From positions 1 to 64,000 of IMG/VR virus record IMGVR_UViG_3300047483_000490: DNA of 64,000 nucleotides. One strand, 5' to 3'. The notes under the pieces are model-generated. The model saw nothing but the letters and a program-made list of their open reading frames with translations, searched no databases and had not been told where the DNA came from. Made by a program: the position numbers and the translations under genes. Below are positions 30,761-31,006 of the stretch, piece by piece. This stretch comes from a virus. Numbering within the stretch: the first letter of the stretch is position 1; each line of letters opens with the position of its first letter.

Positions 30761-30832
30761 AAAAAAGTTTAAAAAAATTGAAACTTTTTGAAATTAACGA
30801 GTATATATAGTATAATTAAAATTAAAACAACA

Positions 30833-30996
30833 ATGAAACAGCAAGGGCTACATATTATAGAGAATAATTATCAGTTTAGTAATAAACCGATGGTATGTGA
30901 TCGCATGCAAGGGCTCAATGTTAATTGTAATATGAATTAGTAAGTTATATTCATACAAGATTTTAAAAAGAGCCCGATTTTATCGGGCTTTTTTAT
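30833..30996 (+). promoter_or_regulatory. leader peptide (30833..30940) + terminator/antiterminator upstream of the tRNA operon
   Basis: 35-codon ORF, terminator agcccgat/atcgggct + U tract, leader gggctc complementary to gagccc. Confidence 0.55.
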
Positions 30997-31006
30997 TTTA
31001 TAATAA

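Follow-up and report, generated by a model that had tools for sequence, protein, structure and literature searches.

The main tRNA cluster of a phage genome was found to lie directly behind an intrinsic terminator, which itself follows a short reading frame with a promoter-like site. The question raised by this locus is how transcription would pass from that site into the tRNA genes and what part the short reading frame plays in it. The window, that is the whole stretch of 64,000 nucleotides that was analyzed, is part of a 79.6-kb IMG/VR virus record, has 32.5% G+C and carries nearly all of its genes on the + strand. A Shine-Dalgarno-like motif was detected in 4 of its 87 ORFs, and an A-rich sequence precedes the starts. 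The lack of Shine-Dalgarno sites together with A-rich sequence upstream of starts is the pattern of Bacteroidota, and the host is therefore taken to be Bacteroidota-like. In distant blastn comparisons with phage records, the only named DNA relatives were the Cellulophaga phages phi4:1 and phi17:2, where the tRNA genes alone were matched, and a megablast comparison of the leader region with phage records gave no match.

Anatomy of the leader and of the tRNA cluster

A preliminary description of this DNA had placed a promoter at 30780-30806, followed by a 35-codon ORF rich in AAT codons, a repeat within it, a hairpin over the stop codon and a strong terminator just before tRNA-Pro. All of these elements were recovered (Table 1). 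A promoter-like site is indeed present, but the best match occupies an overlapping and different interval. In an alignment with the close relatives L004 and L005, the -35-like part was variable, while the sequence was invariant from GTATAT (30801) onward. The ORF was confirmed with its seven AAT codons (codons 11, 12, 17, 29, 31, 33, and 35); it specifies 17 different amino acids and is without Ala, Thr, and Trp. The repeat, GCAAGGGCT, occurs only twice in the 64-kb window, at 30841 and 30907, and both copies are within the leader ORF. The stop-codon hairpin and the terminator were likewise found as described, and the leader strand GGGCUC is the exact complement of GAGCCC in the terminator 5' arm.

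Table 1. Features of the leader element and of the tRNA cluster behind it (window positions).
Feature	Position	Strand	Details
Promoter-like site TTGAAA-17-TATAAT	30788..30816	+	11/12 match to a sigma-70-like consensus (host not of the sigma-70 -10/-35 type); best within 28000-36000 (8 kb)
5'-UTR module TAATTAAAA	30813..30821	+	20 nt upstream of the leader ATG
Leader ORF	30833..30940	+	35 codons plus TAG; ATG at 30833, TAG at 30938-30940
Region 1	30830..30847	+	Holds the start codon and copy A of GCAAGGGCT (30841-30849)
Region 2	30907..30928	+	Copy B of GCAAGGGCT; putative antiterminator strand GGGCUC at 30911-30916 (codons 27-28)
Hairpin around stop codon	30931..30955	+	30931-30937 pairs with 30949-30955; -3.3 kcal/mol alone
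Intrinsic terminator	30966..30994	+	13 pairs plus T run; -17.2 kcal/mol
Region 3	30970-75		GAGCCC, terminator 5' arm
Region 4			Terminator 3' arm, GGGCUU plus U run
tRNA cluster (candidate gated unit)	31007..34372	+	Interrupted by three ORFs

The first gene of the cluster, tRNA-Pro(UGG), starts at 31007, which leaves a gap of 10 nt after the terminator. The preliminary description had named a separate promoter in this gap as evidence against attenuation, and no promoter-like site turned up there in the promoter scan. The sequence TATAAT at 30999-31004, in the T run, was considered as a promoter and rejected: the start would fall inside the tRNA, the motif is not conserved (TATAAA in L005, missing in phi4:1) and the host is not of the sigma-70 -10/-35 type.

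The placement of the ORF was compared with that of other genes of the phage. On the + strand of the window TAATTAAAA is present in 18 copies, 16 of which lie 17-21 nt before the ATG of ORFs of 35-304 aa; on both strands there are 21 copies against 7.2 expected, a number reached by 0 of 100 shuffles. Most copies have a conserved phage promoter block upstream. The leader ATG stands 20 nt after TAATTAAAA, as in 15 other ORFs, and the leader ORF is positioned like a bona fide gene of this phage. The full promoter and 5'-UTR module recurs before many genes as a T run with ATGTCAAA, ~8 nt, TTGTATATTTAC, TAATTAAAA, an A-rich stretch and the ATG (for example at 2603-2670, 9425-9490, 13797-13862, 29811-29876, and 52231-52296), and in three copies (6547, 43514, and 53798) a terminator hairpin takes the place of the upstream half.

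The cluster holds tRNA genes for Pro(UGG), Leu(UAG), Val, Leu, His, Ser(GCU), Gln, Met, Glu, Asp, and Ile, with an odd tRNA-like element between Leu(UAG) and Val. No strong terminator was seen within 31007..34372, and no further tRNAs were found in the rest of the record beyond the window. The other tRNA units of the window (at 649 and 20900-21153) follow genes and are without leader or terminator, so gating would be specific to the main cluster.

Several further RNA-like features were observed in and around the tRNA genes. The odd element (31200-31321, 122 nt) matched the full-length Rfam tRNA model at 50.5 bits, received no ARAGORN call and has an insertion of ~50 nt in the anticodon region. 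A 65-nt tRNA-like match at 34068-34132 (Rfam tRNA, 39.4 bits), also without an ARAGORN call, is followed immediately by CAGCAA (34130) and gave a weak permuted-tmRNA match (19 bits). The spacer directly after tRNA-Pro contains TTGACATATTGGTAAA (31096-31111 in the window, 4812-4827 in L003, 1069-1084 in L005), which is kept in all close relatives; the tRNA next after it differs, being Leu in the window and Cys in the relatives. At 11991-12297, 56537-56593, and 58110-58471 closing stems flanking CAGCAA were recognized by eye; these small RNA-like elements, which adjoin tRNA genes and a TROVE-type gene, are unrelated to the leader.

Related leaders and the match between their codons and downstream tRNAs

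The same leader is carried by the close relatives L003, L004, and L005, IMG/VR contigs whose kinase is 96-98% identical. In the ~205 nt that begin at the -10 region and run through the terminator, these relatives differ by a single synonymous change and a single indel; variation is seen in the -35 region, in the downstream DNA and in tRNA-Pro, where the stem changes are compensatory. Such invariance is consistent with codons and RNA pairing being constrained together, although taken alone it could also mark a recent recombination tract. The distant kinase homologues L006 and L007, which have neither the leader nor tRNAs, were set aside as uninformative.

The decisive material was obtained from a homologue search by way of tRNA-Pro of the window's type. 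In phi4:1, the first tRNA (Pro) is preceded by a Bacteroidota-type promoter, a 22-codon ORF, a stop-codon hairpin, a terminator and 6 nt. The order promoter, short ORF, stop-codon hairpin, terminator, tRNA-Pro was also present in the phage contigs L017 and L055, and again in cellular contigs (of up to 426 and 575 kb), in a Puia sp. MAG (L064) and in a Chitinophagales genome (G382, L121). The spacing from terminator to tRNA-Pro was 3-10 nt across the homologues (3-6 nt in phi4:1 and the bacteria), with ~40 nt in L017. The N termini of the leader peptides, that of the window included, are related, with MK or MN followed by I/L and then H/Q, and because of this common N terminus the tRNA-Pro leaders are regarded as homologues and not as look-alikes. 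Conservation of the ORF and of its complementarity in related phages, which had been proposed as a check, was thus found in the close relatives, phi4:1, L017, and L055, with the bacterial chromosomes in addition.

Broader searches yielded little more. BLAST with the Puia leader over 201 Chitinophagaceae genomes returned mostly generic terminators, and a search of 151 genomes with a covariance model (R1) brought up nothing beyond Puia, generic terminators and Trp leaders, among the last the Trp-codon (WW/WWW) leaders with terminator of the Chitinophagaceae loci L109, L111, L114, and L115. One further genome came from searching 401 Chitinophagales genomes with tRNA-Pro. The pattern AAGATTTTRA..AGCCC..TTTTT had 84 matches in viral contigs, and none of the 81 new ones adjoins a tRNA.

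The codons of each leader were compared with the tRNA genes behind it. The bacterial operon reads Pro(UGG)-Gln-His-Leu(UAG)-Arg(ACG), and its leaders have runs of 6-10 codons for H, Q, L, R, and P only, such as HQLRPQ before Pro-Gln-His-Leu-Arg. The G382 operon, Pro-Gln-His-Arg, is without a Leu tRNA, and its leader run, HQQPRPR, is without Leu. The phage leaders follow suit: in L017, IQIPQQP, with AUA codons, precedes Pro-Gln-Pro-Ile(UAU); in L055, FHTWFTC..P..P..R precedes Pro-Thr-Phe-His-Arg-Trp-Cys; and in phi4:1 a stretch of 11 residues, made up of Q, R, L, H, E, and P, precedes Pro-Glu-Gln-His-Leu-Leu-Arg. All 10 distinct leaders examined, from about six lineages, include every amino acid of their own operon's tRNAs.

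In the window's own lineage, L023, a nearly identical relative that shares a contig with L005, has the fullest cluster; it stands behind the same leader and comprises 20 tRNAs of assigned anticodon. These serve 17 amino acids, a set identical to that of the leader, and Ala, Thr, and Trp are missing from both (P = 2.3e-4, simulation). Under strict wobble, 32 of the 34 leader codons are readable by in-cluster anticodons vs 64% of all phage codons (P = 6e-5), and with four-box U34 reading this rises to 34/34 (P ~5e-5 across 32-34/34); the codon test is partly dependent on structure, since GGG, CUC, CCG, and CGC are also constrained by RNA pairing. Rare codons in the leader are CUA/CUC, CGC, GGG, and AGU. 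Genes for Leu(UAA), Arg(UCU), Gly(GCC), Ser(UGA), Thr, and Ala tRNAs lie outside the main cluster, in other transcription units. Note that the perfect amino-acid match holds for the relative L023 and not for the window genome, because the window cluster is reduced: it is without Cys, Phe, Gly(UCC), Asn, Tyr, Arg(ACG), and Lys tRNAs and matches the leader only in part. The cluster of the relative L018 has a Trp tRNA in addition.

The emphasis placed earlier on Asn codons was borne out only as far as the count is concerned. The enrichment is lineage-specific, and four of the seven AAT codons lie downstream of the antiterminator strand. Sensing of Asn in particular is not supported, since the homologous leaders are without Asn enrichment.

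Two observations concern individual tRNA genes. In the L023 cluster, ARAGORN assigned two-letter anticodons (tRNA-???) at 11198-11272 and 11596-11669 (- strand), which suggests unusual anticodon loops. In the 426-kb cellular contig L052, the tRNA directly after the attenuator-type tRNA-Pro (6960-7032, - strand) has the anticodon UUA (tRNA-Stop, ochre-suppressor-like); related contigs have tRNA-Gln(UUG) in this position, and the L052 leader ORF ends in UAA.

Predicted RNA pairings and the attenuator reading

The leader fold was strong by comparison with shuffles (z = -4.0), and the duplex between leader and terminator in the window exceeded those of dinucleotide shuffles of the ORF (P = 0.005). 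For all 13 sequences compared, the best duplex of ORF and terminator 5' arm was significant against 1000 dinucleotide shuffles (P = 0.001-0.049). The terminator stems are lineage-specific, and in every leader one strand, mostly 0-20 nt upstream of the stop codon (32 nt in L056), is complementary to the 5' arm of that leader's terminator. In the bacterial leaders GGGCUG(UUC) pairs with (GAA)CAGCCC, the counterpart of GGGCUC with GAGCCC in the window; in phi4:1 GGGAGG pairs with CCUCUC, in L055 CUGAG-GGGG with CCCCUCAG, and in L017 CUGAUUGAG with CUCAAUCAG. Across lineages, the changes in antiterminator and terminator are compensatory.

Transcripts cut before the terminator 3' arm were folded for nine sequences. 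The antiterminator fold, with the stop hairpin in its loop, was predicted in seven, the window included, the exceptions being phi4:1 and L055. For the full-length transcripts of the window and of the cellular homologues, the predicted fold was the 1:2 helix together with the terminator. In the window the 1:2 pairing joins 30830-47 with 30912-28 in both the MFE and the centroid structure, and there is no variation at these positions among the window's relatives. In the bacterial homologues, where the 5' strand of this helix is the regulatory codon run itself, the 1:2 helix was 90% paired vs 27-43% when slid, with little covariation. In a closely related bacterial set both helices were ~90% paired vs 27-48% when slid; covariation there was modest, with two compensatory pairs and 35 of 500 shuffles reaching the observed score. 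An equivalent of the stop-codon hairpin was found in all homologues, and in the window it lies inside the loop of the antiterminator helix.

The predicted antiterminator helix of the window has 6 bp vs 9-13 bp in the bacterial homologues, and the window terminator has 13 bp. When forced, the antiterminator fold reached -32.4 kcal/mol vs -41.6 for the terminated fold, i.e. it was 9 kcal/mol weaker, and any effect must therefore be kinetic. In one constrained fold with region 2 covered, copy A of GCAAGGGCT paired with the terminator 5' arm, and copies A and B of GCAAGGGCU are also able to pair mutually. Four of the seven Asn codons are 3' of region 2, and a ribosome stalled there would cover it; the one constrained fold suggests that rescue by copy A could then explain the duplication.

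Taken together, these results, above all those on the homologues, make it likely that the element is a ribosome-mediated (leader-peptide) transcription attenuator gating the phage's main tRNA cluster, homologous to those before tRNA-Pro-led operons of Chitinophagales chromosomes and of other Bacteroidota phages. The attenuator layout proposed in the preliminary description is supported in that three alternative pairings are predicted, the homologues keep the layout with changed sequences and the leader codons match the downstream tRNAs. Transcription would start at the phage promoter, and the 35-codon ORF would be translated from the phage's usual 5'-UTR module. Under fast decoding, a ribosome at the stop codon would occupy the spacer between region 2 and region 3, or alternatively it would depart and regions 1 and 2 would re-pair; either way the terminator would form and transcription would halt before tRNA-Pro. 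A ribosome stalled at a codon whose charged tRNA is scarce would leave region 2 free or, where region 2 itself is covered by the stalled ribosome, the upstream copy A. The free strand would then pair with the terminator 5' arm, no terminator would form and RNA polymerase would read into the tRNA genes.

Because this mini-gene is spelled in the codons that the downstream tRNAs read, the tRNAs are probably made when decoding is slow. The amino acids of the leader are precisely those that the lineage's cluster serves, nearly all of the leader codons are served by it as well, and the circuit would therefore raise tRNA output under slow decoding and lower it once the tRNAs accumulate. As to the trigger, we infer, as had been suggested before, that it may be depletion or cleavage of host tRNAs. 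A wider proposal, which we put forward tentatively and consider doubtful as it stands, is that the leader serves as a general decoding sensor. With at least one codon for each of the 17 amino acids and two interchangeable antiterminator strands, a stall anywhere might free one copy and open the terminator, such that the whole tRNA set would be switched on when any host tRNA is depleted or cleaved (e.g., by anticodon nucleases) and off after recovery; the sensor would descend from an attenuator through which a tRNA operon on a bacterial chromosome regulates itself.

Other explanations of the locus were weighed against attenuation. It could be that the tRNA-Pro was taken up with a bacterial-type leader that has since decayed, the switch being lost, the terminator leaky or constitutive and the ORF drifting. 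The short antiterminator helix, a leader 11 codons longer than the bacterial ones and a window cluster out of match with its leader are what such decay might leave behind. However, the leader is the most conserved stretch of its neighborhood among the relatives, synonymous sites included, the 17/17 amino-acid and codon match in L023 is the opposite of drift, and the antiterminator fold is still predicted for truncated transcripts, all of which renders decay unlikely. Less probable still, the element could be a small RNA or merely one more small early gene, equipped with a promoter and a terminator for itself, and the tRNAs would be transcribed by unregulated read-through. The phage has many ORFs of 40-72 aa that follow this promoter/UTR module, often beside terminators, and both strong RNA structure and a CAGCAA are present in the element. 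The peptide, however, is conserved at its N terminus only, and it is the layout, the terminator complementarity and the codon matching that are kept; the window shows no enrichment of CAGCAA (43 copies vs 35 expected, with 13 of 100 shuffles reaching 43), and the element matched no Rfam family. Membership in the CAGCAA small-RNA family, defined by a closing stem of 6-8 bp, 2-3 nt, CAGCAA and an A-rich linker, was rejected, as the CAGCAA at 30839 is not preceded by a contiguous closing stem.

A further explanation is that the terminator belongs to the operon of the kinase-like gene upstream, with the ORF and its complementarity arising by chance. That gene ends at 30760 without another terminator, as such an arrangement would have it, but a strong promoter-like site and the UTR module separate it from the ORF. 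The complementarity (P = 0.005 in the window) is found again in independent lineages whose upstream genes are different, and the distant kinase homologues L006 and L007 are without the leader. This explanation is accordingly judged very improbable.

Comparison with known leaders and attenuators

In Rfam searches at E <= 1, the window element gave only chance-level leader matches riding on the terminator. Trp_leader (RF00513) scored 21.8 bits vs a gathering score of 41 (E = 0.5), and because it falls below that score the element is not assigned to this family; the rimP leader scored 24.4 vs 47. On the bacterial loci, only tRNA reached its gathering score and the tRNA leaders were unmatched, with a sub-threshold NsiR1 match (26.3 bits vs 39) just upstream of tRNA-Pro in L056. 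The Bacteroid-trp type motif (Weinberg 2010) is reportedly an amino-acid leader attenuator of Bacteroidota. The Trp leaders of L109, L111, L114, and L115 resemble the tRNA leaders in lacking a Shine-Dalgarno site, in a 5' UTR that is very short or missing altogether, in an MK.I.NI start, and in the order of regulatory codons, G-rich strand and GC-rich terminator. Unlike the Trp leaders, which have Trp runs and stand before biosynthesis genes, the tRNA leaders carry the amino acids of their operon and abut tRNA-Pro.

Control of transcription read-through by tRNA status, as proposed for the window, is also the principle of T-box riboswitches. These bind uncharged tRNA directly and free of translation, control aminoacyl-tRNA synthetase and amino-acid genes and occur mainly in Firmicutes. 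In contrast, the window leader has no specifier or T-box sequence, is only ~175 nt long and has a conserved ORF.

Full-text literature searches found no published attenuation of tRNA operons, and tRNA genes go unmentioned in a genome-wide survey of attenuators. If the attenuator reading is true, the supply of tRNAs would be set by how fast matched codons are decoded, on Bacteroidota chromosomes as well as in the phages of these bacteria. This would bear on when large phages express their tRNA sets and might constitute a phage response to host codon mismatch or to tRNA-cleaving defences. The bacterial homologues, with their Pro-Gln-His-Leu-Arg operon, would be a tractable system, in which the variation of leader against operon provides a natural experiment.

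Leader-peptide attenuation is the textbook control of amino-acid biosynthesis, with thrL and ilvL as multivalent enterobacterial examples beside trpL, hisL, pheL, and leuL. Like attenuators of the thrL/ilvL type, the window element is predicted to use a short ORF with regulatory codons, on which the position of the ribosome selects termination or read-through, and mutually exclusive 1:2, 2:3, and 3:4 pairings that end in an intrinsic terminator. It differs from them in that its leader samples up to 17 amino acids, and in that the antiterminator strand is duplicated and lies upstream of the stop codon, which is itself held in a hairpin within the antiterminator loop. The regulated genes are tRNAs and not biosynthetic enzymes, so the product would feed back directly on the signal, namely decoding speed. 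The comparisons made here thus support a known mechanism acting on a new target, tRNA genes, through a multi-amino-acid leader with matched codons.
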